Assembly: GCA_963804645.1 (NCBI GenBank)
Contig: CAWDRG010000005.1
Location: 64,001-128,000 of the forward strand
Direction: 5' to 3'
DNA: 64,000 bases
Source: an uncultured Bacillota bacterium
GTDB lineage: Bacteria; Sysuimicrobiota; Sysuimicrobiia; Sysuimicrobiales; Segetimicrobiaceae
The notes beneath the pieces are model-generated. The model was not told the DNA's origin and did no database searches. It was given only the letters and a program-made list of their open reading frames with translations. Position 1 is the first letter of the stretch, and each line of letters begins with the position of its first letter. Positions 36,578 to 61,055 of the stretch are shown piece by piece. Made by a program: the position numbers and the translations under genes.

Positions 36578-36608
36578 CGAGCCCTCCGTCCCGGCGGCGC
36601 CGATGCGC

Positions 36609-40246: not shown

Positions 40247-41372
40247 CCCGCCTCTCGGAGGCGCCCATGAACGACCGAATGATGTCGATGATGAGTGCGA
40301 CATCCTGATCGGCCAGCGCGCAGTGCAGCGGCAGCGTCAGCATCTCTCCGTAGACGGCCTCCGTCACCGGCAGCACCAACCCAGGCTCGCGGAAATACGG
40401 CTGCAGGTGATTCGGTACGTAGTTCACGCTGGTCTCGATGTCACGATCCTTCAACGCCTGCATGAGGGCGTCGCGCCGGCCGTCCAGCACGCGGATCACG
40501 TAAATGTGGGGAGCAGCATGCCGGTAATCGATCGTCAACGTCCGGATGCTGGGCACGTCGGCGAACGCCCGGTCGTAGCGCCGGCAGATCTCGCGGCGCC
40601 TCGCGATGAACGCGTCGACTTTCGTGAGCTGCGCAAGCCCGATCGCGGCGTTGATGTTGCTCATGTGGTACCTGAACCCGAGCTCCGAGACTTCGTACCG
40701 CCACCCGCGGCCCTTCCAGCCAGGCTCCGTCGGAGCCGGACGAACCATGGCGAGCGATCGCTTGCGGCGCATCCGGTCGGCCAGGGTCGGGTCGACGCAC
40801 ACCACTGCCCCGCCCTCCCCGCACGTGATGTTTTTGATCGAATCGAAACTGAAGCACGCGACATCACCGAAGCTCCCAATCTTCCGGCCGCGGTACACCG
40901 AACCGAACGCGTGCGCCGCGTCCTCAACAACCCGAATCCCAGCCCGTGTCGCGAACTCCATGATGCGATCCATGTCGCACGGATTCCCCGCGTAGTGGAC
41001 CGGCATCACCGCTTTGGTCCGGGACGTGAGCCGCCGCTCCACGTCTTCCAGATCGATCGCCAGCGTCTCGGGCACCACGTCGCAGGCGACCGGCGTGGCG
41101 CCGGTCGCCTTGACGGCCTGAAACGACGAGACAAACGTGAGCGACGGAAGCACAACTTCGTCGCCGGGACCCAGCCCGAGCGTGGCCAGTGCGAGGTGCA
41201 GCGCGGCGGTGCCGTTGCCGACGCAGACGACATGCTCTGCACCGAGAAACTCGCGAAGGCGGTCTTCGAATTCATTCACCTTCTCCGCGTGGCCGTAGTA
41301 GCCCCGGTCCAGGGCGGCCTTGACGGCCTCGTACTCCCCGTCTCCGACGACCGGCTGCGACACGCGGATCAT
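40233..41372 (-). CDS. DegT/DnrJ/EryC1/StrS sugar aminotransferase
   Basis: NGTAALHLAL, VHYAG, EDAAHAFG, FSFDSIKNITCGEGG, GFRYHM. Confidence 0.93.
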   Translation of the reverse strand: MIRVSQPVVGDGEYEAVKAALDRGYYGHAEKVNEFEDRLREFLGAEHVVCVGNGTAALHLALATLGLGPGDEVVLPSLTFVSSFQAVKATGATPVACDVVPETLAIDLEDVERRLTSRTKAVMPVHYAGNPCDMDRIMEFATRAGIRVVEDAAHAFGSVYRGRKIGSFGDVACFSFDSIKNITCGEGGAVVCVDPTLADRMRRKRSLAMVRPAPTEPGWKGRGWRYEVSELGFRYHMSNINAAIGLAQLTKVDAFIARRREICRRYDRAFADVPSIRTLTIDYRHAAPHIYVIRVLDGRRDALMQALKDRDIETSVNYVPNHLQPYFREPGLVLPVTEAVYGEMLTLPLHCALADQDVALIIDIIRSFMGASERRDAHA

Positions 41373-43213
41373 GCGCTCGCGCCGACGCCTGTCATGGGCA
41401 GAAATACCTCCATATAGACCTCCGTGGGTGGGGCAAAAAAGCTCGACAACTCCATCGCGTCCGCGGGCGGAGTTCCCTTCGCGGACAGGACCTCAACCAA
41501 CCGGCGGGCAAGCGCATCCGGTGAGGACACCGCGGGCTCGAACTCCTCGAACCACGCCAGCGGATCCATGTCGAGCTGAGACTCGGGAGAGATCCGAACG
41601 ACGCGCTTGCCGGCCAGGGCCGCCTCGAGCACGGCTCCGGACGCCGCGCATACCACCACGTCGCTCTCCGCGAGCGCCTCCTCCATCGTACCGTCGACGA
41701 CACGCACGCGCGCACCGAGAGCCGCGACCACCCCGTCCGCGAGTTCACGGGCAAACGGATGCGGCTTCACGATGACCGCGGCGTTGGAGATGACCGCGAG
41801 CGCTGCGACAAACTTGTCAATCACCTCCGCCGTGCCGTCCCGCTTCGTCGTCAACACCAGGAGGACCCGGGGCGCGCCGCCGACGGACGACGGCGCACGG
41901 AACGACGGCACGGCTCCGCCGCGGTGAAGATAAGCATACCGCAGTGCCGCCCCCACGACAACCCGCTCGGGCGCGTACCCTTCGCGCACCAGGATGTCCC
42001 GGTACCGCACACCGTTGCAGACGATGCGATCTGGGAGCGGTGCAATGTCCCGCTCGTGGCGATCCGTATACCACGGCAGCACGTTGCGCTTCAGCGGGTT
42101 GTGGCAGAATCCGTATACCAGGGTGCGGGGCATGAAGCGGCGGACCCCGAGGATGGTAAGTTTGTCCGACACCATGTTCTCGAACGGCAGCACCATGAGC
42201 CGCGGGTGGATGCCGTCGCCCGCAAGACGCCGCATCAGCGGATAGTGCAGCGTGGACATCACCGACAGGGACTCGGTGCGGTTTGAAGCATCGAACAGCC
42301 GCGAGACATCGAGGCCGTGCAGCGTCGCCCCACGGAAGCGAAACGTTCGCTGCCGCGCCCACATGAGCGCGGGAAACGTCAGATCCCACAGGCGGAGATG
42401 CTCTTCGAGCACGATGCAGTCGGGAGACCGCCGCAGGCGCCGGATCATGGCCAAAAAGACTCGGAAGGGCTCAGCGATTGTGAGCACGGTCACGCACGAG
42501 AGCCGCTTCGACGCGTAGAGGGACGGGAGCAACGGCAGGTACCGGTCGTGGACGGATCCGGCCTGGTCGATACTCCCCTGGTCCACTCGCGTGCTCAACA
42601 GCACATCCGGGGTCGCGCTGCGCCGCGCTCCGCGGCCCCGCACGGCGACGACGGCGAGCCACCGAGCCAGGAGGGACGCACTCTTCCAGACCAGCGTCGC
42701 AAGGGGCCACAGCGACGAGTCGTGCAGACGCGGCCGGTGCCGTCCGGCGGTTCGGACTCGGTAGTTCCGTGCCCGGGCGAGATCGATGATCAAGGACCGC
42801 AGCGCCGGCGCATCACACACGATGCACACGCTGCGCCGCTCGTCCAGATACTGCCGCGCAAGCCACAGGTAGCAGCAATGGAGAAACAGATCGCTCCCGT
42901 TCGTGTTGCGCTCGGCGATGCCGCTCGCCCACCATGCCAGCGAGTCGTAGCGCCTGCCGAACATCGCCGTGAGTTCGAGAAAGGGCCGCCGCAGATCGTC
43001 TGCGGCGGCCCGCAGATCGGCATCGATGCGACGACGCACGGCGACTCCGTCCACTTCCGCCTCCAGGCGCACGAGGGTCCCGTACTCGGGGATCAGCGCG
43101 ATGACCTCGGCGATCCCGGCCCCATGCAGGACGGCCCGAAGATCCCGCGCCCCGGACGTCGCGAGGACTAGCGTCGGCGGGTCATCGTGGCTCTTCGCCG
43201 ACATCCCCGTCAT
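41369..43213 (-). CDS. Surface-carbohydrate biosynthesis protein, putative GT-B ulosonate transferase
   Basis: C-terminal GT-B-like pattern FEN, GFCH, PDRIV..G, GAALRY, VKPHP, SGAVLEA. Confidence 0.6.
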   Translation of the reverse strand: MTGMSAKSHDDPPTLVLATSGARDLRAVLHGAGIAEVIALIPEYGTLVRLEAEVDGVAVRRRIDADLRAAADDLRRPFLELTAMFGRRYDSLAWWASGIAERNTNGSDLFLHCCYLWLARQYLDERRSVCIVCDAPALRSLIIDLARARNYRVRTAGRHRPRLHDSSLWPLATLVWKSASLLARWLAVVAVRGRGARRSATPDVLLSTRVDQGSIDQAGSVHDRYLPLLPSLYASKRLSCVTVLTIAEPFRVFLAMIRRLRRSPDCIVLEEHLRLWDLTFPALMWARQRTFRFRGATLHGLDVSRLFDASNRTESLSVMSTLHYPLMRRLAGDGIHPRLMVLPFENMVSDKLTILGVRRFMPRTLVYGFCHNPLKRNVLPWYTDRHERDIAPLPDRIVCNGVRYRDILVREGYAPERVVVGAALRYAYLHRGGAVPSFRAPSSVGGAPRVLLVLTTKRDGTAEVIDKFVAALAVISNAAVIVKPHPFARELADGVVAALGARVRVVDGTMEEALAESDVVVCAASGAVLEAALAGKRVVRISPESQLDMDPLAWFEEFEPAVSSPDALARRLVEVLSAKGTPPADAMELSSFFAPPTEVYMEVFLPMTGVGASA

Positions 43214-43259
43214 CCGCGGCGCACACGCACCGCGGCATGCCCCGACGGCGCCGTGCGCG

Positions 43260-44051
43260 TCACACGCGGCTCCAGATCACGGCGAGCTTCGGCGGCCGCA
43301 AGGGCAGCATCCCCGCAGCCGACGGCCGGAGTGTCTCGGTCACCCGAAACTCATCGTCGAACGTGACAAGCGTCTCGGGTCGTAGGCCCGCCCGGAGCCC
43401 AGGGCGCAGGTGCTCCCGCGTCGTACGCTTCCATCCCAATCGCACGACGCGGTGCGCGCGCACGTCCCCGCGTGCCTGAATCAGCGCGCGCTTGGCCAGC
43501 CCCCTGAAGATCCCCCCGAACGACAGGTTCGCCACGGTGATCATCACAGCGGCGCCGCCGGGCGCCAGCAGCCGCGCGGTCTCGTGCAGCAGGTCCTCGT
43601 AGCCCCGCCGGTCGTAGACGTGCTCGATCGCCGAGAGTACGACGACATCGAACGTACCAGGAGGCGCATCGACGTGTCGGGCGTCCCCGATGTACACCGG
43701 CGCCTCCGGATGCGCCTCGCGGAACGGCCCCAGCGAAGAAGCTTGGCACTCCTGCACCGAAACCCGGTAGCCGTGCTCAAGCCACACCTGCTCCATCGTC
43801 CCCAGCCCCGCACCCAGCGAGAGCACGGTGCCTCCGGGCGCACCGGCACCTGGTCGGGATCGCAGCACCGCAGTCTCGATCCACGCTGCAAGATTCAACC
43901 GCGCACACACCCACGCGGGGTCGAGGGAAATCCCCCCGGCGAGAAGCCGATCGTAGAACGCGCCGTAGAATGCCGCGGCCCCGTCGGGGACAGCGGGAAT
44001 GCCATCAAAAGGAATCCCGTGCCACTCGCCCTCGAAGCTCTCGATCTCCAT
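43260..44051 (-). CDS. Class I SAM-dependent methyltransferase
   Basis: VLSLGAGLG.ME, GDA, FDVV, RLLAPGG. Confidence 0.85.
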   Translation of the reverse strand: MEIESFEGEWHGIPFDGIPAVPDGAAAFYGAFYDRLLAGGISLDPAWVCARLNLAAWIETAVLRSRPGAGAPGGTVLSLGAGLGTMEQVWLEHGYRVSVQECQASSLGPFREAHPEAPVYIGDARHVDAPPGTFDVVVLSAIEHVYDRRGYEDLLHETARLLAPGGAAVMITVANLSFGGIFRGLAKRALIQARGDVRAHRVVRLGWKRTTREHLRPGLRAGLRPETLVTFDDEFRVTETLRPSAAGMLPLRPPKLAVIWSRV

Positions 44052-44093
44052 GCCCGCCCACCGCCGACTCCGGACGCCTCGGCCCGCCGCCGT

Positions 44094-44963
44094 TCAGACC
44101 GGCATCGTGCGCTTGGTGTGCAACCGTCCGATCTCGGCCGCCTTCGGGTCATACGCGCGGCAGAATTTCAGCCCGCGGTCGATCTGCGCCTTGATGTCCT
44201 CCGGGGTCACAATCGTCAGAAACGAGATTCCGGCGTCCGCGCACGCCTTCCAGACGCGGTCGAGATCAGCCTGCAGGTCGGGAGGCAGGGGCACCGGCCG
44301 CTTTCGGTATCCCTGCTCCATCGACTGGTCGCCGGCCCCCCACTCGCCAAACGCGATCCCGGGCACCCGCGCGCTCACTTCACAGTTCACGAGCGCGCGC
44401 GCATTCTCCATCTTGATTCCCAGCAGGAGCTCCCCGTTCGGGTTGAGCGGCCACACGTCGGCCTTCTCCATATACTCGTCCTCGGAGATGCCCCACACCT
44501 TCGAGGCCATCCCCTGCCCCCCATGGCCCCGCCGGCCCTTGCCGAGTCCGCGGCCGACCCCGAGCGATTGAAATACGTATCGCGCTGATTCCACGTAGGC
44601 GCGGACCGCCCCCGGCGTCTCCGCGTGACAGAGGATCAATCCATGAACGCCCTGGGCGAGCGCCTGTTTGATCATCCACGCGTTGCTGTACACGACGTAC
44701 TCATCGATGCCGTCGAACGGCAATTCCGCGATCACCGCGGGGGTGCGGTGGCCGCTGCGCGTCGGCCCGCCGTCGATCAGTCCCTGCATGAATGTCCCGA
44801 GTGCGGTCATGTCGAACGGTCCGTGCTCGGAGTCAATGCGGATGTAGTCCGCCCACGTCTTGGCCATGGCAACGCCGCTCTCGTGGGTCAGCACGTGCGT
44901 ACTTGTGTAGTAGACCGGCTGCCCCCGCTCCAGCAGCTCGATCGCCCGGTTTACCCGCGCCAT
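44094..44963 (-). CDS. HpcH/HpaI class II pyruvate aldolase family protein
   Basis: IDSEHGP, IKQALAQGVHG, GIKMEN, WGAGDQSM (metal-ligand E and D positions). GGAGGT RBS. Confidence 0.8.
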   Translation of the reverse strand: MARVNRAIELLERGQPVYYTSTHVLTHESGVAMAKTWADYIRIDSEHGPFDMTALGTFMQGLIDGGPTRSGHRTPAVIAELPFDGIDEYVVYSNAWMIKQALAQGVHGLILCHAETPGAVRAYVESARYVFQSLGVGRGLGKGRRGHGGQGMASKVWGISEDEYMEKADVWPLNPNGELLLGIKMENARALVNCEVSARVPGIAFGEWGAGDQSMEQGYRKRPVPLPPDLQADLDRVWKACADAGISFLTIVTPEDIKAQIDRGLKFCRAYDPKAAEIGRLHTKRTMPV

Positions 44964-44982
44964 TGATTGAACCTCCCGAGTC

Positions 44983-46194
44983 TCAGGACGGTCGACGCCC
45001 GTTCCGCGATGCCGATGCCGCCCGCCGCGCGATTCCTGGGGCGGCTCTCACGACGGCGCGCTCCAGTCGATCGCGGATGATCGCGGCGGACAACTCGCCC
45101 GGCCGGACCCTGCCGTCGCAGGCGATGACCTCGTCGTAGAACGGCGCCCGGAAGCCGGGTTCCACGGTCCCGACCACGGCCACCACGCGGCGCCCCAAGC
45201 GCTTGGCGACCGCCCCCGCGTGAGCCGGCCCCTTCGACAGCAGGGTCGTGCGGTCGAGACGGCCTTCCCCGATGATTACGACGTCGTGACGTTTGATCCA
45301 TGCCGCGAGGCCGATCTCCCGCTCAACCAGCTCGGCGCCGTGCACCAGCGTCGCCCCCAGAAATCCCAACAGCCCCGCACCCAACCCGCCCGCCGCCCCG
45401 GCCAGCGGAACGTCGACGCGGCGACCGGTCTGTCGGCGTAACACCCGCGCGAGGTTGGCAAATCCCGCGTCGAGGTAGGCGATCTCCGAGACGCTGGCAC
45501 CCTTCTGCGGCCCGAATGAGCGCGCCTGCCCCCGCGGGCCCAGGAGCGGGATATCCGCATCCGACGCGACGACGATCTCCGGGACGCCCTGGGACACCTT
45601 GAGGCGATCCAGGCGCACCCCGGCGATGTCGACCAAACTCAGCGCGTTGAACCCGGGAGTCCCGATGGGGCGCAGTACGGCACCGCGCCGGTCAAGGAAC
45701 TCAACGCCCAGGGCCTGCGCCATGCCGATCCCCATGTCGCTGACGATGGACCCGCCCAGCCCGACGATGACGCGGCGGTACCCGCGGGCGACCGCGGCGA
45801 GAATGAGCTCGCCCACGCCGTAGGACGTCGCCACCATCGTCTGCCGTTCGTGGGGGCGCAGGAGCCTCCACCCGGCCGCCTCGGAGATCTCGATGACGGC
45901 AGCCGCCGGCGTGCCGTCGAGCAGCCCGAGGCGCGCACGCCGCGGGCGAAACAGCGGATCGTGCGCGGACACCTCCACCACGCGTCCGCCCCGCGCGGAC
46001 ACCAGGACCTCGATCGTCCCATCGCCGCCGTCGGCCATGGGTGCGATTTCGATCGCGAACCGCTCGCTGCCGCGGCGGAGCCCGCGTGCGATGCTTCTGG
46101 ACGCCTCGCCCGGCGAGAGGTACCCTTTGTGGCCGCAGCTCGCGATCAGCGCGCGCACGCTGCCCCCGGGCGTGCGCGCAGCCCCTACCGGCAT
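44983..46194 (-). CDS. Glycerate kinase (GarK/GlxK family), divergent
   Basis: PMADGGDGT, TSYGVGELI, GLGGS, FGPQKGA, GAAGGLG, GEGRLD. N-terminal SCGHKG replaces PDSFKG. Confidence 0.88.
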   Translation of the reverse strand: MPVGAARTPGGSVRALIASCGHKGYLSPGEASRSIARGLRRGSERFAIEIAPMADGGDGTIEVLVSARGGRVVEVSAHDPLFRPRRARLGLLDGTPAAAVIEISEAAGWRLLRPHERQTMVATSYGVGELILAAVARGYRRVIVGLGGSIVSDMGIGMAQALGVEFLDRRGAVLRPIGTPGFNALSLVDIAGVRLDRLKVSQGVPEIVVASDADIPLLGPRGQARSFGPQKGASVSEIAYLDAGFANLARVLRRQTGRRVDVPLAGAAGGLGAGLLGFLGATLVHGAELVEREIGLAAWIKRHDVVIIGEGRLDRTTLLSKGPAHAGAVAKRLGRRVVAVVGTVEPGFRAPFYDEVIACDGRVRPGELSAAIIRDRLERAVVRAAPGIARRAASASRNGRRPS

Positions 46195-46230
46195 GGCGAA
46201 CCCCCGCGTCGCGGCGCAGCACGCAAGCCG

Positions 46231-47295
46231 TTACTCCGCATCGAGCCGGGCCAGACGCGAGACGATATCTACCACGCGGGACCCGTACCCCCATTCGTTG
46301 TCGTACCACAGCACGAGCTTGAGCTGCGCGTCTCCGTGCACCATCGTCCACCGGTGGTCGACCACCGCGGAGTGCTCAACCCCGGCAAAATCGACGGACA
46401 CCAGCGCCTGGTAGTTGTTCGCGATGACGGGGTACGCCTGCGTACGCTCCGCCGCCTCGAACACGCCGATCACGTCGTCTCGGGACGCGTCCCGAGACAG
46501 TTTCACCGTGAGATCGGCGGACGACACGATCGTGGTCGGCACCCGATACGACAGCGACACAAACTTGCGGTCGATGCCGGGCAGCACCTTGGCCGACGCC
46601 CGCAGGCATGAGGTCGTCTTTGGGATCAGCGACAGCGTGCTCGCGCGCCCCAGCGCATAAGCGGAGTGGATGCTGCCGGGGTCCGAAAACGAAAACGACG
46701 GGCCGTCCAGCAGCCGCTGGTAGCTGAGCCACGGGTGCAGAGTGGTCAGGGAGCCGTACTCGATCCCGAAGTGACGTTCCAACAGCAGCGCCACAGGCGC
46801 GAATGCCGCCGCATCGCAGATGCTGGCCGAGAGCACGAAATCGCCGCGCCGGATGTCGGTCTCGTTCACCCCGAAGATGACAAACCGGTCGACGAACTGT
46901 TCGTCTGGCGCGTTGGTCACGACGCAGTGCCGCACGCCCTGATCAGCCAGCCGGCGCAGCGCGGGCAGGTTGTGCTCGATCCCGGACGCGTCGATCACCA
47001 GATCGACGGCGTCGGCCTTCCACGGCACCGCGTCAATCTCGTGGTGTCGTGATACGCGGATCGAAGGCGCGCGCTCGACCGCGAGCGTATCGGGCCCTTC
47101 TACCCGTACGTCGCGCGCGAGCCGCCCGTATGTCGAGTCGTACTTCAACAGGTAGGCGACGTTGCCGAGATCCGGGTTGATGTCATTGACGGCCACCAGA
47201 TCGAACACGTCCCGCTCGAGGTTGATCCGGGCGATCGCGCGTCCGATCCGGCCGAACCCGTTAATGCCGATGCGCATCCGCATGCCGGCGGCCAC
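46231..47295 (-). CDS. GAPDH/erythrose-4-phosphate dehydrogenase family protein, divergent
   Basis: GINGFGRIGR, YLLKYDSTYG, SASICD (Cys), TTLH, RVPT, WYDNEWGY. The start may be 47283 or 47277. Confidence 0.92.
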   Translation of the reverse strand: MAAGMRMRIGINGFGRIGRAIARINLERDVFDLVAVNDINPDLGNVAYLLKYDSTYGRLARDVRVEGPDTLAVERAPSIRVSRHHEIDAVPWKADAVDLVIDASGIEHNLPALRRLADQGVRHCVVTNAPDEQFVDRFVIFGVNETDIRRGDFVLSASICDAAAFAPVALLLERHFGIEYGSLTTLHPWLSYQRLLDGPSFSFSDPGSIHSAYALGRASTLSLIPKTTSCLRASAKVLPGIDRKFVSLSYRVPTTIVSSADLTVKLSRDASRDDVIGVFEAAERTQAYPVIANNYQALVSVDFAGVEHSAVVDHRWTMVHGDAQLKLVLWYDNEWGYGSRVVDIVSRLARLDAE

Positions 47296-47298
47296 GGC

Positions 47299-48288
47299 CT
47301 ACTCACCACCCTCGGGCCCATAGTCGACCACCCCGTACAGGGGCGGCTCGCCGCGGGCGGCCCGCGCGACGTTCGCCGCCACGTGCTGCACCATCCGAAA
47401 CCGCGATTCGTGGCTCGGCCCGGCGTGCGGCGACAGCGCCACGTTGTCGAGCGCGAGCAGCGGAGAGTCCCGCCGAGGAGGCTCCGCCTCAAACACGTCG
47501 AGCCCGGCACCTCGCAACCGACGCTCGGTGAGCGCCTCGTACAGCGCCTCTTCGTCGACGATGCCTCCGCGCGCTGCATTGATCAAGACGGCCGTCGGTT
47601 TCATCCACCCGAGCGAGTCGCGGTTGATCATGTGCCGCGTCCGGGACGTCAGCGGAACATGGAGGGTCAGCACATCGGACGCCCGCACCAGGTGCTCGAA
47701 CGGGCACGCCTCAAGCGCGTGCGCCCGCACGAACTCGGGATCCGCCGGGCGAATGTCGTCGTACAGGACGCGCATCCCAAATGCGCTGGCGCGGACCGCG
47801 ACCGCACGCCCGACATGCCCGAGCCCCACGATCCCCATCGTCTTGTCGAGGAGTTCAATGTTCTCGTGCTTCCGATTGACCCACGATCCGTCGACGACGG
47901 TCGCATGATGAAACCGCTGGTGACGAAACAGTGTGAGTGCCAGCAAAAATACGTGCTCCGCCACAGAGACGGCGTTCGACCCCCCGTTGTTGGCGACGAT
48001 CACCCCGTGACGCGCCGCACGCGCAAGGTCGATCTGTTCGTACCCGGCAATCGGCAGCTGAAACAGTTTGAGACGAGGCGCGCGCCGGTATTGGTCGTCC
48101 GTCAGGTCGACGCGCGAGATAACGCAGTCCGCGCGAGCTAACAACTCGGAAAGATTGTCCGGAGGCGAGGTAAAATCCACCCGCAGCCACTCGCACCGCG
48201 GGTCACCCAATTCACGCAACTGATTCTTGAAGCTGTCATAGACATCGGCCGACGTCAGGACGACAAACGCGTCGTCACGCGCCGGCAT
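47299..48288 (-). CDS. D-isomer-specific 2-hydroxyacid dehydrogenase
   Basis: VAEH, GLGHVG, HVPLT, INAARG, LDVFEAEP, SPHAG (R-E-H triad). Confidence 0.93.
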   Translation of the reverse strand: MPARDDAFVVLTSADVYDSFKNQLRELGDPRCEWLRVDFTSPPDNLSELLARADCVISRVDLTDDQYRRAPRLKLFQLPIAGYEQIDLARAARHGVIVANNGGSNAVSVAEHVFLLALTLFRHQRFHHATVVDGSWVNRKHENIELLDKTMGIVGLGHVGRAVAVRASAFGMRVLYDDIRPADPEFVRAHALEACPFEHLVRASDVLTLHVPLTSRTRHMINRDSLGWMKPTAVLINAARGGIVDEEALYEALTERRLRGAGLDVFEAEPPRRDSPLLALDNVALSPHAGPSHESRFRMVQHVAANVARAARGEPPLYGVVDYGPEGGE

Positions 48289-49018
48289 GGTTTTTCGTGG
48301 AAGCCGCGCGCCCGCTCAGGATCGTCTCGATGAACAGCATCTGGTGCGGGTCGTCGACGTCGATCGCTCGCTCTGGCGGCACGATGTACGGGATCGGCCG
48401 CCGCCCGATCAAATTGGTCTGCGTTTTGAGCTCGCCGACCGTGTTGAAAATGATCGCAAAGTTGGCGCGGTACATTCGACGATGGTCGTTGTGCCGCGTC
48501 GACCGCCGGTAGTCTTCGGGGAACACTGGGTCGAGGCGGTTATCCTCCGCAATGTTCAGCGCCAGCTGGATAGGGTACTCGTAACTGGTCACGCTGACCA
48601 CGGGCGTCGCCCCGCCCTGCTCTCGGAACAGTTGATACGCTCCCTGGATGTCCTGCGCCGTCCGCAACGGGCACGTCGGAAACAAGACCCCAAGTACCGT
48701 GTCGTCGGACCACTCAAGCGCGCGGATCATCTCCTGGATGATCTCGATGATATACGTGGTGTCGCTCGCCAACTCGGGGGGCCGCAGATAGGTGTCGGCA
48801 CCGTACGAACGAGCCACGGCGAGTATCTCGTCATCCTCGGAATTCACGATGACTCCTTCGAACACACCGCTTTGCAGGGCCGTCTCGATAGTGTACGCGA
48901 TCAGGGGCTTGCCGTTGACCAAGATCAGGTTCTTGTGGGGGACCCGCTTCGACCCGCGTCTGGCGGGGATGAACGCGTGGACAGCCGCCTTCCCACCGCT
49001 GTCCCCACGAACCCCCAT
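48275..49018 (-). CDS. Acylneuraminate cytidylyltransferase (NeuA/KdsB) family protein
   Basis: IPARRGSKRVPHKN, GKPLI, RP.ELASD, PTCPLR, IDVD. ATG at 49018 follows AGGAGG. Confidence 0.92.
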   Translation of the reverse strand: MGVRGDSGGKAAVHAFIPARRGSKRVPHKNLILVNGKPLIAYTIETALQSGVFEGVIVNSEDDEILAVARSYGADTYLRPPELASDTTYIIEIIQEMIRALEWSDDTVLGVLFPTCPLRTAQDIQGAYQLFREQGGATPVVSVTSYEYPIQLALNIAEDNRLDPVFPEDYRRSTRHNDHRRMYRANFAIIFNTVGELKTQTNLIGRRPIPYIVPPERAIDVDDPHQMLFIETILSGRAASTKNHAGA

Positions 49019-49244: not shown

Positions 49245-50777
49245 TTACGGCCCACCGCGGACGGGTTCGGCGCGCCCGCGGCGGCCGATCCACCGCAGCA
49301 GATCGGCGCTGCTCCCCGTCACCCAAACGCCCGCTACAATCAACGGGGCGAGCACGATCAGAGTACCGAGCGCTACGGCTGCGGAGTGCACCAGGTCCGC
49401 TTCCCACCCAACCCGTTCACCCCCGGCACGACCAAACAGCCAGAGCACGCCGGCCGTCCAGCCGGAGGCGCACGCGGCCTGCAACAACACCTTCCACGAC
49501 GTCTTGATCCCCCAAATTTCCCGCCCGGCGGAAAACACCATATACACAAAATACAATGCGTAGCCGATGACTGTGCCCACCGCCACGTCGCGCAGCGTGA
49601 CGCGGCCGAGGACAAACCACATCAGGGCGATCGACCCGCCAGTCGCCAGCACCCCGAACAAGTTCGAGAGACCGTAGGAGACGAGACGCTTATCGGCGAG
49701 CCACAGCACGTAGATGTTGTTGTTGTTCGAGATGAAAAATGAACAGAGCAGCAGCACCAACAGGACCGGCACGCTGTCGCTGTACAGCGGCGTGATGTGG
49801 CGGATCAGAAACGGCGCCGCCGCCGCGACCGCCCAGGACACGAGCGGGATCGACACAAATAACTGAAACTGCATGAATCGCAGCATGTCTTTCCCGATCT
49901 TCTCCCGACCGACTCCCTCTCCATGCTGCATCAGCGTGCGCGTCGACAGCACGGTGCCCATGCGGGTCGTGACATCCGAAGCTTGGGAGTAGAAGCTTTT
50001 CGCGAGGGCGTACAGTGCGAGCGGCCCGAGCCCAAGCAGCCGGGAAACCCACAACACGTCGAGCGACAGAAAGAACACCTGCGGGTAGTCCGCCATCCGA
50101 AAGCCGATTCCGTACGACACCAGGCGCTTCCACATTCGCGTGTCGAACATCCACGCCGTCGTGAGCCCCGCCCGGTTGCCCGCAAGGTAACTCCAGAGCC
50201 CGCGACACAGCTCGGCCACAATCGCCGCCACCAGGAGTCCCGGCAGGCCGGCCGCGTACGCTCCCACAGGGAGCGCGACCGCATACAGGACCGTGGTCAC
50301 CAGCAGCACACGGCTGAGGGCGACATAGAGTTGGGCGCCCTGGAAGAACGTGATGTAGGCTTCCTGGACCTTGCCGAGGATGACCAGCACGCCTGTCACG
50401 ACGAGCGCCGCGACCTTCAGGCGGTCAAAGGTTGCCAGATGCCAGTAGGTGTACGCCCACAGCCCCACCGCCAGCACGGCCGCTTCCACGAGCGAGAACC
50501 AAAGCGCGACGGAGCGGCAGCTGACCTCTTCGGCGGGTTCGTTCCGCCCTTTCAGAATCGAAAGTTCCCGCAACGCCCCCGCCAGCGCGCCGAGCGTGAT
50601 CGGCTGCACATACCCGCGCGCGAGGACAACAAAGTTCCAGGTGCCCATCACCTCCGGGGGCAGCAGACGGCGCACGGCGAACCCGGAGAGAAACGTCACC
50701 ACCTGTGCGAGCACGTTCGTCCCGCTGTACGCGGCGGCGCTCTTCATGACGAGCCGGCGGGCCCGCGACGTCACCAT
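49245..50777 (-). CDS. wzx: Wzx-type oligosaccharide flippase (MOP superfamily)
   Basis: About 12-14 TM segments, RRLLPPEVMG, LG...LALY in the second half. Glycan-locus context. Confidence 0.8.
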   Translation of the reverse strand: MVTSRARRLVMKSAAAYSGTNVLAQVVTFLSGFAVRRLLPPEVMGTWNFVVLARGYVQPITLGALAGALRELSILKGRNEPAEEVSCRSVALWFSLVEAAVLAVGLWAYTYWHLATFDRLKVAALVVTGVLVILGKVQEAYITFFQGAQLYVALSRVLLVTTVLYAVALPVGAYAAGLPGLLVAAIVAELCRGLWSYLAGNRAGLTTAWMFDTRMWKRLVSYGIGFRMADYPQVFFLSLDVLWVSRLLGLGPLALYALAKSFYSQASDVTTRMGTVLSTRTLMQHGEGVGREKIGKDMLRFMQFQLFVSIPLVSWAVAAAAPFLIRHITPLYSDSVPVLLVLLLCSFFISNNNNIYVLWLADKRLVSYGLSNLFGVLATGGSIALMWFVLGRVTLRDVAVGTVIGYALYFVYMVFSAGREIWGIKTSWKVLLQAACASGWTAGVLWLFGRAGGERVGWEADLVHSAAVALGTLIVLAPLIVAGVWVTGSSADLLRWIGRRGRAEPVRGGP

Positions 50778-50853
50778 GGTCGTGCCGGCGGCACAACGCG
50801 CCAATAAGCGGCGAACGAAGTACGCGGAGAACGGCGGGGCAGCGCGCGCACGC

Positions 50854-51297
50854 CTACCCCGGAGACCACGGGGCGGGCATCGTCGCGTCAAACGGGTCGA
50901 GGCGTTCCACCTCGCCCGCATCGTATGGTAGGTCTGTGCAGTTCGCTACGAGGGCGTGCCGGTCTCCGAGCGCCTGGAAGCCGTACCAGATGCCGGGCGG
51001 GATCTGGATCAGCAGATACGCGGCTTCGCCCACCTCCAGCACCTGGGTCACCCCTCGCGTGGCCGAATCGGCCCGCGTGTCGTGAAGGCAGAATCGCACC
51101 GTGCCGATCGGCACCGTTAGCTGCTGCACGATCCGGCGGTGCCGCCGCCATGCTTTCACGGCGCCCGGGTTCGTCAGCGAAAAATACACCTCGCCGAACC
51201 CCCGGAACAGCGGGGAATCCGACCGAAGCATGTGCATGATTTTGCCGCGGGCGTCGGCGATCTGCGTGAGTGGTTGGACCACGACGTCGTGAATCAC
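50854..51297 (-). CDS. NDP-4-keto-6-deoxyhexose 3,5-epimerase-like cupin (RmlC family)
   Basis: DARG, FGEVYFS, KAWRRH, IPPGIWYGF. GTGA overlap with rfbG. Confidence 0.88.
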   Translation of the reverse strand: MIHDVVVQPLTQIADARGKIMHMLRSDSPLFRGFGEVYFSLTNPGAVKAWRRHRRIVQQLTVPIGTVRFCLHDTRADSATRGVTQVLEVGEAAYLLIQIPPGIWYGFQALGDRHALVANCTDLPYDAGEVERLDPFDATMPAPWSPG

Positions 51298-53310: not shown

Positions 53311-55350
53311 TTAGGGACCACCGCCCTCAACCCGTGATCGGGCGGCGCGGCCGAGCTGTTCGAGCGCAGCGAGCGCCCGCGCCGCGCTTGCCCCGTCGTC
53401 CCGAAACAACCCGTAGGCGAGCAGAAACTCCTGATTGGGAGTCGCAACCTCGGCAAACTCCTTCGACTGCAACCGCGCCCGCACCCGAGCGCAAAAGGCG
53501 TCGGGATCCGTCGTCACGTCGGCCCGCTTACGCAGCAGCTCCCGGGCCTCGGGCAGCAGACCGTTGTGACGCCGGTCGGCCAGAATGACGATGGGCTTGG
53601 GCGTCAGCAGCGCCTCCAGCAATCCTGTCGAGGGCATATCGATGACGTGAAGGTCGGACGCCCACAGCAGTTCCGGCAGCGGGACGCGGGTCACGACCGT
53701 ACAGTTCGGGCACCGATCGGCGATCAACCGGATGATCGGATCGGGCTCGAGCATGGGGAACGCCTTATAGATGAAGCGGACCTCGGGAAACTCGCGCATG
53801 AGCTCGACCATCCGCGCCTGCAGCTGAAAATACGGCACGTTCCCGTTGTCTCCACATCCGAGATACCGCCGATACCGCATATACATCGTCGGCACATAGA
53901 CCACCGCGGGCTGTCCCGCGGCCACGCCCAGGCGCCGCCGAAGCGCCGCGACCCGTGGCGCGGAGGGCCCAACGCGAAGACGGTCGAGCCGCGCGGACCC
54001 CACGCTCCGCACCTGCGCGCGTGCGCCGGGATACCGAAACCCGGGGTGTTGATAGTACGCCTCAACACCGGGGCCGTACACGAATCGGTGATCGGAGGCC
54101 CGCAGATCAGTCATCTCGTGCAGCGCGAACGCACAGCTGCCTTCAAACCCCCCATGCTGGTACGTGACGATCGGCACGCCGAGCACGCGGCCGGCGTGCA
54201 GCACGCCGTGATCCACCGCGCTGTAGGGCGAGGACACCAACAGCGCGACCGGCCGGCGCGTGCGAAGGCCGGCGTGCGCACCCGTGAACGCGTTCCATCC
54301 GATGGGAATGACGTGCTGACACCAGTGCCGGAGGCGGGGCTCGGCCACCGGCCACAGGTCCACCCCGACCCACTGAAAGGGACGGCGAATCGCCGGTTCG
54401 GACGCGACCCGCTCCCAGCATCCGGACAACGACGCCGACAGCTCGGGGGGTGCCGGTTCGTCCGCCCGCTGCGCTGAGACCACCTCTGCGAATTCTCGGC
54501 ACTGCCATCCCTGCCGCAGCGCAAACCGCGCCACGAGGGACACGTCGAAGCCCTGCTTGAACACGAGTAAAGAGGCGGTCTTGGCACGGGTCAGGCGACG
54601 CAGCAGACCGGCCGGCCCGAGGGACCGGACGATGCGGAGGCCCGCTTTCTGCCGAGACGACAGCATGCGAACGCCCCGCTGGCGCAGCCCGGTCCCGGAC
54701 GCCGAGCCCCGTTGCGCCGGCTCAGCCGGCAGGCGGGTGAGCGGAATCCCGTAGGCGCCCGCGCACGCCGGAAGAATCGCCGCGTGCACCGAGCGATGAT
54801 CGAAGAACAGCTCCGGCCCAAAGCGGTCGGTCGAGACGTCCTCGATGTACACGACCTCGCGAGGTTGCGCGCCCACAAAGAAGTGGACCAACGCGTAGGC
54901 ACACATCAGCATTTCGTCGCTGAGAATCTTGAGGAAGAATCCGTGCATGCGTGCGGGCTTGAACCCGGCCTCGCCAAACACCGGTACGGACTCGGCCAGC
55001 AGCGCGTCCACCGAGTCCAGCCAGCTCATCTGCAGCGCGAGCACCGGCTCGATGAGTCGGCGAAACACCGCTTCGTCGAAAAACTCCTCCAGCACGACGT
55101 AGGGATGTCCGTCCCGAACACACTGATAGGCAGCCTCGGGGGTCACGGCCACGAGGATGTTTACCCGATGCTGCAGCGACGGTTCCGACAACACGCGTCG
55201 GACATCGTCGGCGCGCACGCAGACCGCGTAGACGGCGTCCCGCGGGAGATCACCGCGCCGGCCAGCATCGGATGCGCCGATGCGCCCGTGCGGCAGGATG
55301 TCGCCGACTACGCCGTTGGGCGCACCCGACGGGCCGGTCGAACCCGTCAC
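53311..55350 (-). CDS. Surface-carbohydrate biosynthesis protein, putative nonulosonate transferase
   Basis: YQHGG, FVYG, GSAR, YKAFP, STGLLEA, DGASA.R (GT-B-like C-terminal half). Directly downstream of pseI and pseH-G. Confidence 0.6.
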   Translation of the reverse strand: MTGSTGPSGAPNGVVGDILPHGRIGASDAGRRGDLPRDAVYAVCVRADDVRRVLSEPSLQHRVNILVAVTPEAAYQCVRDGHPYVVLEEFFDEAVFRRLIEPVLALQMSWLDSVDALLAESVPVFGEAGFKPARMHGFFLKILSDEMLMCAYALVHFFVGAQPREVVYIEDVSTDRFGPELFFDHRSVHAAILPACAGAYGIPLTRLPAEPAQRGSASGTGLRQRGVRMLSSRQKAGLRIVRSLGPAGLLRRLTRAKTASLLVFKQGFDVSLVARFALRQGWQCREFAEVVSAQRADEPAPPELSASLSGCWERVASEPAIRRPFQWVGVDLWPVAEPRLRHWCQHVIPIGWNAFTGAHAGLRTRRPVALLVSSPYSAVDHGVLHAGRVLGVPIVTYQHGGFEGSCAFALHEMTDLRASDHRFVYGPGVEAYYQHPGFRYPGARAQVRSVGSARLDRLRVGPSAPRVAALRRRLGVAAGQPAVVYVPTMYMRYRRYLGCGDNGNVPYFQLQARMVELMREFPEVRFIYKAFPMLEPDPIIRLIADRCPNCTVVTRVPLPELLWASDLHVIDMPSTGLLEALLTPKPIVILADRRHNGLLPEARELLRKRADVTTDPDAFCARVRARLQSKEFAEVATPNQEFLLAYGLFRDDGASAARALAALEQLGRAARSRVEGGGP

Positions 55351-56927
55351 GGAGCGCCCGCCCTCTTCGCGGACGGGCGCAGGGAGATCAGCACCTCGGC
55401 GACGCGCTCGGCCCCGCAGCCGTCGACCAGTCTGCGCCCGGCGGCCGCCATCGCGGCACGGAGGTCCGGCCGCGGCAGCAGCTCGACAAGAACGTCGCTA
55501 ACCTGGGCGCGAAGCGACGCGTCGTTAGCGCCGCTCACCGCGCGGACCACTCCTGCGTCCGCCATTGCGCGCACGCTCGCGATCTGATTGTCAGCCGCGG
55601 CGACGGCGACCGTCGGAGTTCCCGCCGCGGCAAGCTCGTACATCGTCTGCCCGCCCGCAGAGAGCGCGAGGTCAGCTTCCACCATGAGCTCGCGTACCGA
55701 GGGGGGATCCCGCACCAGTCGGACCGGCCTGGCGCAGCGCGCTGCGGCGGCGTCGACGACCTCCGGATGGGCGAACATTGGCGCGGTGATCGCCGTCACC
55801 ACGCACTGTTCCGGGAGCAGACCCGCCGCCTCGAGCAGAATCGAGAGCAGCCCGCGCGGGTCCGCGCCACCGACCGCGATCAGCACGTTCTGCACCTCTG
55901 GCCGCGGCGCGCGGACAGGCACGTTCCGAAACTCCGGCCGGAGCATGACGTACCGGGGCCCAAGGAGGAACCGGGCGTCGCCCAGGGATCGATACGGCAG
56001 CGTCTCGGCGTGCGCGCCACCGTTGACGACGAGTTGGCACGGAAACGGGTACGCCGCAAGGTCGTCGATCGCCGCGACGACACCGCCGCTGTCACGCAAA
56101 CGCGCCAGGTACTCCGTATCGACGTGATACGAGTCCACGAGGATGTGGGTGGCTCCAACGTGCACCGCGCTGTCGAGCGTGCGGGCGACGTCGTCGGGAC
56201 TGCCGGGGCGCGCCTGCTCCAGCGGTGCGAAGTCAAACCCAAGGGCGGCAATCCTGCGCTCCGCCTCCGGATGGCTGTCGGCGAGGAACGTCGAGGCGAT
56301 GCCGTCGCCCCGCAGCGCCAGCGCGAGCGAGAGACACCGCTGCAGATGCCCCAACCCGCTCGTCGCGGTCGCGTCGACGCGAAACAGGACCGCGCGTGAT
56401 GCCCTCGGCGCCGCGTCCGCGCGGCCCCAGTCGGAATCCCGGCGCCGGCGATACACAAGCACCCAGGCCTCGACGCCGGCGATCTGCGCGGTGCCGTCCA
56501 GCACGAACCCGGCCCGCTCGAACGTCGCGCGAGATCTGGGGTTGTCGGTCTTCACGTGCGCGACGACGCGCCGCACGGGTCCCGTCAGCACCAGGTCCGA
56601 GGCGATGCCAATCGCCACGGTGCCGTAGCCGCGCCCACGCTCCAGCGCATCGACGCCCACGCTGATCTCGGCGCGGTCGTCGTCGAGCGTGAACCGCACG
56701 TAGCCGACGGCCCGGCCATGAGCCAGGATCACGAACATCCGACGCCGCGGGTCGGCCACGGCGCGCGAGAACCAGTCGCGATGCTCTTCGAAGGGGATCT
56801 CGCGCGTCGTGAACGACGCGCCACGCGCCTCGGGGTCGTTCCGCCACTCCCATACCCGCCTGACGTCCTCGAGCGTCGCGGGCCGGACCGCGACCGGACC
56901 GCGCGCCGCGTCCGGCCGTTCAGTCAT
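55347..56927 (-). CDS. pseG: PseH-like GNAT N-acetyltransferase fused to PseG-like UDP-sugar hydrolase
   Basis: N-terminal WEWRNDP..R, GYVRF, RGRGYG, N.RS...F. C-terminal FRVDA...GLGHLQRC, VDSY, IDD, GGAD, SAGGQTMYEL, ADNQ, VDGCGA.R. Confidence 0.88.
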   Translation of the reverse strand: MTERPDAARGPVAVRPATLEDVRRVWEWRNDPEARGASFTTREIPFEEHRDWFSRAVADPRRRMFVILAHGRAVGYVRFTLDDDRAEISVGVDALERGRGYGTVAIGIASDLVLTGPVRRVVAHVKTDNPRSRATFERAGFVLDGTAQIAGVEAWVLVYRRRRDSDWGRADAAPRASRAVLFRVDATATSGLGHLQRCLSLALALRGDGIASTFLADSHPEAERRIAALGFDFAPLEQARPGSPDDVARTLDSAVHVGATHILVDSYHVDTEYLARLRDSGGVVAAIDDLAAYPFPCQLVVNGGAHAETLPYRSLGDARFLLGPRYVMLRPEFRNVPVRAPRPEVQNVLIAVGGADPRGLLSILLEAAGLLPEQCVVTAITAPMFAHPEVVDAAAARCARPVRLVRDPPSVRELMVEADLALSAGGQTMYELAAAGTPTVAVAAADNQIASVRAMADAGVVRAVSGANDASLRAQVSDVLVELLPRPDLRAAMAAAGRRLVDGCGAERVAEVLISLRPSAKRAGAP

Positions 56928-57969
56928 AGTCGTCCGATGTGATCGCCCGCTCCTGCGGAATATCCCGCCGTGCGCGCCTCCCGAGGATCTCGTCAAACTG
57001 CTTTGGTGGCAGTCCCGCCGGAAGCTTTCCGCAGCGCAGGACCGCGATGTTATCGCGGGTCAGCGCGTCGCCGCGCGCGATCTCGCGCACGGCGAAAATG
57101 CTCCGCCGGGCGAACAGCCGGAGTTCCTCCTCGACCGGGTGCACGACCTTCCGGCCGTCGCCGAGCGCGCGCTCCGTCTCTCGGATCTTCTGGACCATCA
57201 GACGCAGCTCCGCGGGCTCGACAGCGAATCGGTGGTCGACCCCAGGCAGCTCGTTGCTGAGCGTAAAGTGCTTCTCGATGAGGTTCGCACCCACCGCCAC
57301 GGCGGCAAGCGGCCCCACCAGCGGCTCGCGAGAATGATCCGAGAGCCCGACGGGAACTTCGAACGCCGCCTTCATCGCAGGAATGGTGCGCACGTTCAGC
57401 GACTCGAGCGGCGCCGGATACGCGGCGGTGCACTGCATCAAGATCAGCCCGTGGTGCCGCGCCGACCGCACGGCATCGACGGTCTCGGCGACCTCCTCCA
57501 GCGTGGCGGCACCGGTCGAGACGATCACCGGCTTGCCCGCGCGCAGCAGGTATCGGATCAACGGCACGTGCGTCAGCTCATACGACGCGATCTTGAACGC
57601 ATCCACAAACGGTGCCAACCGGTCGGCCGATTCCTCGTCAAAGACCGACGCCATGAACAGCATGCCGTGCTCGTGGCAGCGGGCCGCGAGCGCGGGCACC
57701 CACGCATACGGCATCTCCATCTCGGAGATGATGTCGTAGATCGAGCGTCCGACCTTGAGATAATCGCTCATGCCGGCGTGCTTCGGATACAGGCGCTCCG
57801 CGCGGAACACCTGGAACTTGACCGCGTCGACCCCTGCGGCGGCGGCGACGTCGATCAACCGAATCGCCTGAGGCTCGAGCCCGTTGTGATTGCTCCCGGC
57901 CTCCGCGATGAGGAAACAGGGGGCTCCATCGCCGATCGTCCGGTCGCTGATCCGGACCGGTGGAATCAT
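56920..57969 (-). CDS. pseI: NeuB-family nonulosonic acid synthase (PseI-like)
   Basis: IAEAGSNHNG, VKFQ, KIASYE, STG, CTAAYPA, GLSDHS, EKHFT, C-terminal SAF domain. Product identity is inferred from pseB/C/G/H context. Confidence 0.9.
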   Translation of the reverse strand: MIPPVRISDRTIGDGAPCFLIAEAGSNHNGLEPQAIRLIDVAAAAGVDAVKFQVFRAERLYPKHAGMSDYLKVGRSIYDIISEMEMPYAWVPALAARCHEHGMLFMASVFDEESADRLAPFVDAFKIASYELTHVPLIRYLLRAGKPVIVSTGAATLEEVAETVDAVRSARHHGLILMQCTAAYPAPLESLNVRTIPAMKAAFEVPVGLSDHSREPLVGPLAAVAVGANLIEKHFTLSNELPGVDHRFAVEPAELRLMVQKIRETERALGDGRKVVHPVEEELRLFARRSIFAVREIARGDALTRDNIAVLRCGKLPAGLPPKQFDEILGRRARRDIPQERAITSDDYD

Positions 57970-58188
57970 GCTAGCCTCCCGCACCGAGCCGCTCGGAGGG
58001 GCGCGGAATCGGCCGCCCGCACGGCGCGCGCCATCGGCGATGTTTGGGGACCCGCACCGACCGCGATCGTCCGCCCATCACGTCTCCCTCTCCGGATTCG
58101 CATCGAGGCGAGCACACTACGACGCCGCCCACGGACGCTTCGTCGAGGTGCTGCGATGCCCCTGGGGACAGTCGGGCCGCCGACGACG

Positions 58189-58935
58189 TCAGTCATGCGC
58201 GGGCAAATACTGGGCGTTGAGCGCGGCGACATCCGGATGCGCCTCGAGAAACGCGATGATCTCGTCGGTCGTCACGAGACGCCCCGGCTGGTACAGCGCC
58301 TCGAAGATCCGCCGAAGCAGCAGATAGTCCTCCCAGTAGTCGAGCGTCCAGCGGTACCGCCAGAACCCGCGTGCGGGGTCTTCCACGTTGTAGACGCGCA
58401 GGCCGGCCTCCCAGAAGTACGGGATCGTATGCTCCCGCTGCGGCGGGGTCGTGGCGTGCCGCCACGCCTCTGCGAGGCCCTCCGCAGACAGCACGTCACA
58501 ATCGAGCCCGTCGGGAAACGTCAGCGGGTGGCGATTCGTGACGAGGTCGTACTGCGAAGGGTGCGCCAGAAAAAACCTGACCATTCGGTCGATGAGCCGC
58601 GGGTCGGCCAACGGGCAGTCGGCGGTAATGCGCACGACCACGTCGAGCCGAAACTGCTCTGCCGCCCGGTGATAGCGGTCGAGCACGTCGAGCTCGCTTC
58701 CGCGAAACACCGGGATGCCCCGCGCGTCGCACAGCGCGGCGATGGGGTCGTCCGCCGGCTCCTCTGACGTCGCGACGAGCGCCGCCGTCAACGACGTCGC
58801 GTACGCGAGCCGCTCCATCAGATGGTCGAGCATCGGCTTGCCGGCCGCCTCCAGCAGCACCTTCCCGGGCAGCCGCGTCGAGCGCATGCGCGCCTGGACA
58901 ACCGCGCCCACGCGCGCGGGGGCTCCCTCAGGCAC
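58189..58935 (-). CDS. SpsF-like cytidylyltransferase family protein
   Basis: VQARMRSTRLPGKVL, RGSELDVLDRY, RITADCP, REH, RWTLDYWED. Start approximate. Confidence 0.9.
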   Translation of the reverse strand: MPEGAPARVGAVVQARMRSTRLPGKVLLEAAGKPMLDHLMERLAYATSLTAALVATSEEPADDPIAALCDARGIPVFRGSELDVLDRYHRAAEQFRLDVVVRITADCPLADPRLIDRMVRFFLAHPSQYDLVTNRHPLTFPDGLDCDVLSAEGLAEAWRHATTPPQREHTIPYFWEAGLRVYNVEDPARGFWRYRWTLDYWEDYLLLRRIFEALYQPGRLVTTDEIIAFLEAHPDVAALNAQYLPAHD

Positions 58936-60328: not shown

Positions 60329-60368
60329 CTCCCTACCGCTCAGGATCGGTCACGAACACGACCGGCGC

Positions 60369-61052: not shown

Positions 61053-61055
61053 CGG

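Follow-up and report, generated by a model that had tools for sequence, protein, structure and literature searches.

A gene cassette centred on a GAPDH-like dehydrogenase, probably for a CMP-activated ulosonic acid of surface glycans

What would enzymes that resemble those of central metabolism make beside a cytidine monophosphate (CMP)-sugar synthetase in a glycan locus? This question is raised by seven genes at 41369..49018 on the minus strand of a 64,000-nucleotide stretch from an uncultured Bacillota bacterium (contig CAWDRG010000005.1, positions 64,001 to 128,000), which we call the window. All seven open reading frames (ORFs) are present and intact with intergenic gaps of -14 to 46 bp, in agreement with the compact co-directional arrangement reported in the initial annotation of this DNA. 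Contigs from four DNA runs (two studies), covering all 30 bins, show no frame-changing indel in 41369-49018, with the exception of a compensating indel pair at 44755/44759 in one run of the four. Cell-surface ulosonic acids are known as products of KdsA- or NeuB-type synthases. We consider it likely that five of the seven genes constitute a biosynthetic cassette whose product is a 2-keto sugar acid, made with neither KdsA nor NeuB and activated with CMP for a surface glycan. The basis for this reading is the folds, the kept catalytic residues, the rebuilt substrate sites, the conserved gene order and the glycan context.

The hub of the cassette is the gene at 46231..47283 (minus strand, as for all genes below), which encodes a GAPDH-like dehydrogenase (Gp_dh_N/C) of an undescribed subfamily marked by the motifs ICD and HPWLxYQ. 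This protein is approximately 34% identical to the genome's own GAPDH, whereas the 119 best relatives in the database share 50-83% identity with it. The genome also encodes an ordinary gap with an SCTTN motif, and the phylogenetic comparison with housekeeping gap that the initial annotation had suggested places the cassette enzyme on a separate branch. A duplication of the housekeeping gene is rejected.

Alignment to E. coli GapA and Salmonella Epd reveals C149, H176, T208 and R231 in 73 of 73 family members, together with an equally constant I148, D150, P177, W178, L179, Y181 and K206. Positions 176-182 lay within the search pattern, and the independent positions are 148, 150, 206 and 229. 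The catalytic residues of phosphorylating (type I) GAPDH are present as judged against GapA (C149, H176, R231 and N313). The phosphate-site residues S148, T150, T179 and T181 are not kept, with I148, D150, L179 and Y181 in their places in all 73 members; T150 is a phosphate ligand of GAPDH. A review lists S148, T179, T181 and R231 as phosphate-site residues, and ties the change from T179 to Met in Epd to a larger substrate (PMC12041015). The cassette family resembles M179 of Epd with its L179, and carries Y311 at the position of Epd C311. In addition, the window protein falls below the cut-offs of the GAPDH-family model TIGR01534 (243 < 367 bits) and the Epd model TIGR01532 (202 < 531 bits). 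From these residues we infer a hydrolytic (non-phosphorylating) dehydrogenase with a substrate other than glyceraldehyde-3-phosphate, wherein the thioester would be hydrolysed rather than phosphorolysed, since the changes S148I and T150D do away with the site for inorganic phosphate.

There are at least 119 stretches carrying the GAPDH motif in species-representative genomes and all 119 match the window protein. Among the matches listed, the records come from SAR11, SAR86, Prochlorococcus, Bacteroidota, Bacillota, Myxococcota and archaea. The exact motif is found in only one of 94 genomes of the window's phylum, which is the window's own, and it is also present in four viral contigs. This sparse occurrence in the phylum, taken with the viral contigs, points to a mobile accessory unit. 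The contigs in question (488, 175, 83 and 8 kb, putatively viral) carry the common form of the cassette described below at L144:7485-12066, L145:5237-8563, L147:4684-8530 and L146:6554-8013, with the GAPDH-like and CMP-transferase genes in all four, an HpcH aldolase and a dehydrogenase in three, and a HAD gene in L144. Three DNA queries for the cassette had no match among 5,426 E. coli genomes, and the plasmids searched gave none either. Annotated phages gave only ordinary GAPDH/Epd at 27-32%, and the ESM Atlas returned only GAPDH clusters.

Gene neighbours were counted for 80 GAPDH loci with flanks, as same-strand ORFs within 6.5 kb; this way of choosing ORFs may overlook genes where GC content is high, and the 80 loci include some from related genomes, which are not independent. 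The neighbours include a CMP-transferase (44 loci), a 2-hydroxyacid dehydrogenase (43), a HAD protein (38), an FAH-family protein (21), an HpcH-fold protein (13), an AroB-like protein (10) and a glycerate kinase (5). The CMP-transferase and the dehydrogenase occur together in 40 of the 80 loci, and in 30 of the 47 that have at least 5 kb on either side. Among those 40, a HAD gene is found in 29 and an HpcH or FAH gene in 30 (FAH 20, HpcH 12, both 2). Another ten loci (L017, L023, L029, L049, L063, L074, L075, L081, L090 and L091) carry a second module composed of an AroB-like cyclase, SDR, NTP-transferase and VOC proteins and sometimes a kinase of GlxK or MOFRL fold, which may make an activated cyclitol or hydroxy-acid phosphate. 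The other 30 loci are mostly short or partial.

Recurring neighbour clusters with Pfam matches comprise glycosyltransferases, Wzy/Wzx, NeuB/NeuC and a polysialyltransferase-like protein. A sugar-acid importer, a dehydratase or a catabolic regulator was not found in these clusters by Pfam searches of their representatives, most singleton ORFs being unscanned. Thus, the company of sugar-acid transporters, which the initial annotation had named as the sign of a catabolic role, gives way to a glycan-locus context. A subgroup of the FAH family, recognizable by AYNY/ALNY and RDW/HHL motifs, replaces the HpcH aldolase in the common cassette (L078:13218-13997, L065:13202-13981 and 16 more), and this exchange hints at an aldolase-like activity on the FAH fold.

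The complete window-type set is found in only one of the 80 loci (L033). A pattern made for the window's GAPDH clade retrieved eight metagenome loci, of which seven are real and one (L140) was dropped as a chance match. The order of CMP-transferase, dehydrogenase, gap, glxK and aldolase genes is kept in six other loci (L033, L136, L139, L141, L142 and L138) whose GC contents range from 30 to 69%. Identity to the window genes is 45-66% in L033, L136, L139 and L141 (30-63% GC), 72-87% in L142 and 99% in L138, and this last copy is not independent of the window. The partial copies L137, L143 and L087 are consistent with the same order. All full copies lie in a glycan context, the CMP-transferase is their constant first gene, and it adjoins the dehydrogenase gene in six of six. 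There is no NeuB match in the available flanks of L033, L136, L139 and L141, and KdsA appears in no recurring neighbour cluster, although no search aimed at KdsA was made.

A HAD gene is located between gap and glxK in five of five distant copies and is missing from the window, L138, L142, L137 and L087. The proposal in the initial annotation that the gene set is conserved within glycan loci holds for five genes, to which distant copies add the HAD gene. The seven-gene unit is rejected, as conservation does not extend to the methyltransferase and the GT-B protein can be exchanged for another. The CDP-glucose genes rfbF/rfbG are not counted in the cassette either, since they flank the window and L136 copies and are not in the flanks of L033, L139 and L141. 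Three of the four distant full copies come with a radical SAM/SPASM gene (L033:10666-11676, L136:4714-6012 and L141:4713-5708); these genes are orthologous (47-51% identity), and the window has none.

The first gene (48275..49018) encodes a CMP-ulosonate synthetase family protein of the NeuA/PseF-like branch, 247 amino acids long from the ATG at 49018. It exceeds the PF02348 threshold (73.3 bits versus a gathering score of 22.6, E 3e-20), scores below the PseF cut-off (161.8 < 205.7) and the KdsB models (41-52 bits versus cut-offs of 155-255), and has NeuA/CSS enzymes as its nearest solved relatives. In six of six cassette enzymes, Gln104 of the Neisseria enzyme is replaced by Phe, and the NG of the RPNGA motif by NF, NY or TY, positions that have a role in the Neisseria protein. 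The window enzyme forms a clade with the copies of L033, L136, L139, L141 and L142 (support 1.00), and the sister branch is an enzyme from the NeuB locus L043 (support 0.86). This third CMP-transferase of the genome travels with the cassette and not with NeuB.

The second gene (47299..48288; PF02826/PF00389) encodes a D-2-hydroxyacid dehydrogenase with both Pfam domains of this family (2-Hacid_dh_C 199 bits), the motifs of the Arg/Glu/His triad and, in the alignment, an Asp after the nucleotide-binding strand. It falls below the equivalog cut-offs for PdxB (115 < 434), SerA (220 < 454) and GhrB (158 < 492). In FastTree trees, of which those for the CMP-transferase and the dehydrogenase are midpoint-rooted, the dehydrogenases of the window variant form their own clade (1.00) apart from that of the common cassette (1.00). 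The common GAPDH-HAD-CMP-transferase-dehydrogenase cassette shares its GAPDH subfamily and functional set with the window variant, whereas the variant has an extra glycerate-kinase clade, another aldolase family, and a CMP-transferase and dehydrogenase from other clades. The partners stand in separate clades, and therefore the same functional set was assembled at least twice. Such recruitment of equal functions from different clades argues for one chemical logic, although the window variant may make a product that differs from that of the common cassette.

The kinase and aldolase genes are core members of the window variant. The product of 44983..46194 (Gly_kinase 314 bits) passes the model for class I glycerate kinases (GlxK/GarK; TIGR00045, 281 > 168), and its motifs differ from those of ordinary glycerate kinases, with S.GHK for P.xFK and SIVSD for SATND. 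It belongs to a distinct cassette-linked clade of 41 clusters above a score gap. By the indirect proxy of longest-contig size, 18 of these 41 proteins match a top-120 GAPDH or aldolase hit versus one of 77 ordinary kinases (two intermediate kinase rows were excluded), and the fraction for contigs of at least 10 kb is 15/21. Endothiovibrio diazotrophicus has the kinase and the aldolase under the consecutive accessions GAB6041589 and GAB6041590. The window genome yielded no second match for either the kinase or the aldolase, so the description of this kinase as a paralogue from central metabolism did not survive, as the genome has no second GlxK-family kinase.

The product of 44094..44963 is an HpcH/HpaI-fold class II aldolase-like protein by its predicted structure and alignment. 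Its model (predicted local distance difference test score, pLDDT, 95.4) matches HpcH structures in Foldseek (E 3.5e-15, template modelling score 0.71 to 4mf4), the structural matches comprise HpcH/HpaI, GarL and hydroxypyruvate aldolases, and a profile search matches YfaU (E 1.4e-8). The equivalents of the metal and pyruvate ligands D42, E44, H45, E149 and D175 are kept, with a Lys at the Gln147 position. The earlier identification as an HpcH aldolase holds for fold and ligands, but Arg70 is replaced and the score lies below the PF03328 cut-off (20.5 versus 25 bits; the L033 orthologue passes with 30.4). An Arg two residues before the Asp42 equivalent occurs in 25 of the 120 best hits, and in six of the seven whose contigs match the kinase clade by size. 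This aldolase family is very large, with 7348 relatives among 8000 candidates scored, and has no close solved structure; in 60 relatives, a search for the window type gave nothing above 33% identity. In glucarate/galactarate catabolism (GarL, GarR, GarK), too, a class I glycerate kinase has an HpcH-fold aldolase as its neighbour. In contrast, the cassette has altered active-site motifs in both proteins, no dehydratase or importer, and the CMP-transferase link in glycan loci.

The remaining two genes are an accessory and a loosely linked one. The class I SAM methyltransferase (43260..44051; PF13649) is found only in L138 and L142, the two closest relatives, and the methyltransferase at the same place in L139 is unrelated to it. 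Methylation as a core step is rejected. The 614-amino-acid protein at 41369..43213 has a GT-B fold over residues 200-612 (pLDDT 93.8), and this part matches NeuC, CalG1, MurG and WaaA at Z 12-16, a fold that fits epimerases too. It was previously called an orphan, yet it has 2118 representatives at E<=0.001 and a weak match to TIGR04326 (LIC13510 family; 75.4 < 250), a model that its L016 homologue passes (435.8). Its family has an invariant E345 and, within a KPHP motif, an invariant P486. When its profile is compared with the Protein Data Bank, the CMP-Kdo transferase KpsC comes first (E 5e-4), with the HP motif inside the aligned part, and homologues are found in L033, L139 (19%), L138 and L142. 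This likeness to KpsC would fit a CMP-sugar donor and makes the protein a candidate CMP-sugar transferase, although the window's nonulosonate could equally be the donor. Another candidate ulosonate transferase, a 679-amino-acid protein with a weak TIGR04331 (LIC12162 family) match, is encoded at 53311-55350 next to the nonulosonate genes.

How could these enzymes make a ulosonic acid? The likeliest of several routes, which we favour only tentatively, is an Epd/PdxB-like oxidation of an aldose phosphate of four or more carbons followed by aldol extension. The GAPDH-like enzyme would oxidize an aldose phosphate other than glyceraldehyde-3-phosphate, with erythrose-4-phosphate as the first candidate, through a hydrolysed Cys149 thioester. 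The dehydrogenase would then oxidize C2 of the aldonate to the 2-keto acid, as PdxB does after Epd. According to PMC6303947, 4-phosphoerythronate, glycerate and gluconate-type acids are among those that enzymes of this family convert to the 2-keto form and back. The kinase might add a phosphate and a HAD phosphatase remove it, wherein a host phosphatase must stand in for the latter in the window. Perhaps the HpcH-fold enzyme forms a metal-bound enolate, and an aldol addition lengthens the chain to a ring-forming ulosonate. The NeuA-like enzyme would make the CMP-sugar that the KPHP-motif GT-B protein would transfer, with methylation as an optional, lineage-specific addition.

The Kdo (KdsD, KdsA, KdsC, KdsB, WaaA/KpsC) and sialic or nonulosonic acid (NeuB, NeuA) pathways share with the cassette a PF02348 CMP-transferase, the HAD phosphatase that most cassette copies carry, and a GT-B transferase, whose HP motif in the cassette is like that of KpsC. 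The conserved unit of the cassette contains no phosphoenolpyruvate-dependent synthase; instead it combines two NAD dehydrogenases with a kinase and a protein of class II aldolase fold. Epd and PdxB of vitamin B6 synthesis, like the cassette, pair a GAPDH-family enzyme in which a hydrophobic residue replaces T179 with a D-2-hydroxyacid dehydrogenase. However, Epd keeps S148/T150 where the cassette enzymes have I148/D150, the latter carry K206 and Y311, and the cassette shows neither scores within the Epd and PdxB models nor a SerC/PdxA/PdxJ context.

Several observations weigh against this reading. The roles proposed for the enzymes come from sequence and predicted structure, and no locus is tied to a glycan structure. 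The cassette GAPDH does not share C311 and K209 of Epd. The variant GAPDH clade (0.99) nests among the GAPDHs of the kinase/AroB modules (0.93), the same GAPDH family serves a second module that lacks the CMP-transferase pair in ten of ten loci, and L053 of the same clade has the GAPDH gene alone without any partner. The aldolase carries Glu in place of the catalytic Arg70 of HpcH, for which an invariant Lys184 may substitute. An orthologue of the cassette HAD was not found in the window genome by a hidden Markov model search (best score 20.5 versus at least 156 for members). Finally, ten of the 40 loci with the CMP-transferase and dehydrogenase pair have neither HpcH nor FAH, an upper bound given the ORF picking, and therefore the aldol step may be optional. 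Aldol condensation may thus not be the core step that the initial annotation envisaged, as the HpcH fold is present in the window variant whereas the wider family uses an FAH protein instead or has none found nearby.

One alternative, a sub-case of the cassette reading that we regard as unlikely, operates at the three-carbon level. Glyceraldehyde or its phosphate would be converted to glycerate and then to hydroxypyruvate, which the aldolase would join to an aldehyde to give a 3-hydroxy ulosonic acid (a 2-keto-hexonate or Ko-like). Glycerate is what the reactions of GAPDH, glycerate kinase and hydroxypyruvate reductase have in common, hydroxypyruvate-bound HpcH-fold enzymes (6r62, 7nnk) are among the structural matches, and two unrelated glycerate-kinase folds (GlxK and MOFRL) occur beside this GAPDH family. 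However, glycolysis already provides phosphoglycerates, so there would seem to be no need for a GAPDH and a kinase remodelled and dedicated to this task, and the substrate motifs of both proteins are altered.

A further sub-case, with still lower probability, reverses the order of events. A 3-deoxy-ulosonate phosphate from the aldolase or from host DAHP would be dephosphorylated, and its end carbon oxidized by both dehydrogenases to yield a ulosaric acid such as Dha. This would explain why the aldolase can be absent and why the same GAPDH is also found with an AroB-like cyclase, and Dha is present in bacterial lipopolysaccharide according to the available text of PMC4019464. However, the kinase is left unaccounted for, and known D-2-hydroxyacid dehydrogenases, as described in PMC6303947, act on 2-hydroxy or 2-keto acids rather than on a remote primary alcohol.

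It is more doubtful that the cassette makes a nucleotide-activated small hydroxy-acid phosphate, similar to CDP-glycerate, as a non-sugar decoration through a PF02348 enzyme that has drifted to that job. Caulobacter CpgD, which in the available text of PMC12275187 makes CDP-glycerate from phosphoglycerate, does set a precedent for activating a glycerate-type acid with CTP for a surface structure, and the window GAPDH nests in a clade tied to kinases and NTP-transferases. However, the CpgD product is a CDP diester, whereas the window enzyme, which is NeuA-like and not CpgD- or LicC-like, should form a CMP-ketoside. Furthermore, the cassette contains no CDP-alcohol or LicD-type transferase, and both the aldolase and the HP motif, with its likeness to KpsC, speak for a donor that is ketosidic.

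There is little probability that the CMP-transferase serves the upstream nonulosonate as a surplus NeuA, with the remaining four genes providing that sugar with an acyl or ether group such as one of glyceroyl type. Its score against the PseF model (161.8 versus 131.1 for the upstream copy) and its sister branch from a NeuB locus would suit such a role, but it lies beside the dehydrogenase in all six full copies, four of them without a NeuB match in the available flanks, and its Gln104 and RPNGA positions are altered in all six. A catabolic operon of the GarL/GarR/GarK type inserted by chance is rejected as highly improbable. Glycerate kinases, HpcH aldolases and hydroxypyruvate reductases do usually take part in the breakdown of sugar acids, but the recurring neighbour clusters scanned include no importer, dehydratase or catabolic regulator, a CMP-transferase gene always comes first, and all full copies have a glycan context.

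The cassette is embedded in a long glycan region with a Pse-like nonulosonate pathway, CDP-glucose genes, aminotransferases and glycosyltransferases. The operon continues beyond 41369 with a DegT family gene that overlaps by 4 bp. Upstream is a wzx-like flippase gene (49245..50921) whose true start is probably later than that of the longest ORF. Its earlier label of wzx is supported by 24% identity to a PF01943 (Polysacc_synt) protein of locus L047 and weakened by the lack of a Pfam match of its own. The 226-bp gap reported after this gene is confirmed if the ATG at 49018, which is preceded by GGAGG, is the start codon, as it then separates that codon from the wzx-like stop (49245). A scan for promoters and terminators gave results at chance level.

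The nonulosonate pathway itself (55347..63976) includes PseB- and PseC-like proteins, Gfo/Idh/MocA, two more CMP-transferases, a class III aminotransferase (above the NF004856 cut-off), one NeuB and a GNAT-PseG fusion. This content suggests that it makes a modified Pse/Leg derivative. Elsewhere in the window, a thiamine pyrophosphate-dependent E1-alpha-like gene (30042-31065, minus strand) is broken into two ORFs, and the base at 30536 is missing in contigs of four of four runs, so the split is probably an assembly error. The presence of this gene alongside an E1-beta-like one at 29055-30038 hints at a branched-chain sugar. A second assembly frameshift is likely at position 35543, in the overlap of ORFs 34754-36640 and 33594-35777, where one base is missing in three of four runs.

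There is no description of this gene set in the literature searched, which left supplements and most subscription journals outside the search, nor was a pathway for Dha or a hexulosonic acid found there. Sugars of this kind are known, as far as the available texts report, from several sources: Dha and Ko from the lipopolysaccharide of A. haemolyticus NCTC 10305 (PMC4019464), a hexulosonic acid from E. coli K3 (bioRxiv 10.1101/2025.01.29.635457; PMC10433991), whose gene cluster is left unassigned in the part of PMC10433991 available, and Dha from plant rhamnogalacturonan II (RG-II; 10.64898/2026.05.02.722439). A broader and rather speculative possibility is that the cassette represents an oxidative third route to CMP-ulosonic or ulosaric acids, centred on the non-phosphorylating GAPDH subfamily, assembled repeatedly from unrelated parts (HpcH, a second HpcH-fold family or an FAH-fold enzyme with aldolase function) and dispersed among bacteria, archaea and large viruses. 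This route might then be the missing biosynthesis of a short-chain acid that only glycan structures have so far revealed, such as Dha or a hex-2-ulosonic acid.

The cassette is real and conserved, and probably a variant of CMP-ulosonate biosynthesis that differs from the Kdo and sialic-acid routes. Its five small soluble enzymes are open to reconstitution, and a named bacterium, Endothiovibrio diazotrophicus, has at least two of the genes side by side. The analysis also provides a signature by which sequences of this GAPDH subfamily, annotated in databases as a glycolytic enzyme, can be recognized. If the proposal is true, it would add a new glycan building block and correct many annotations, including those in SAR11, SAR86, Prochlorococcus and viral contigs.

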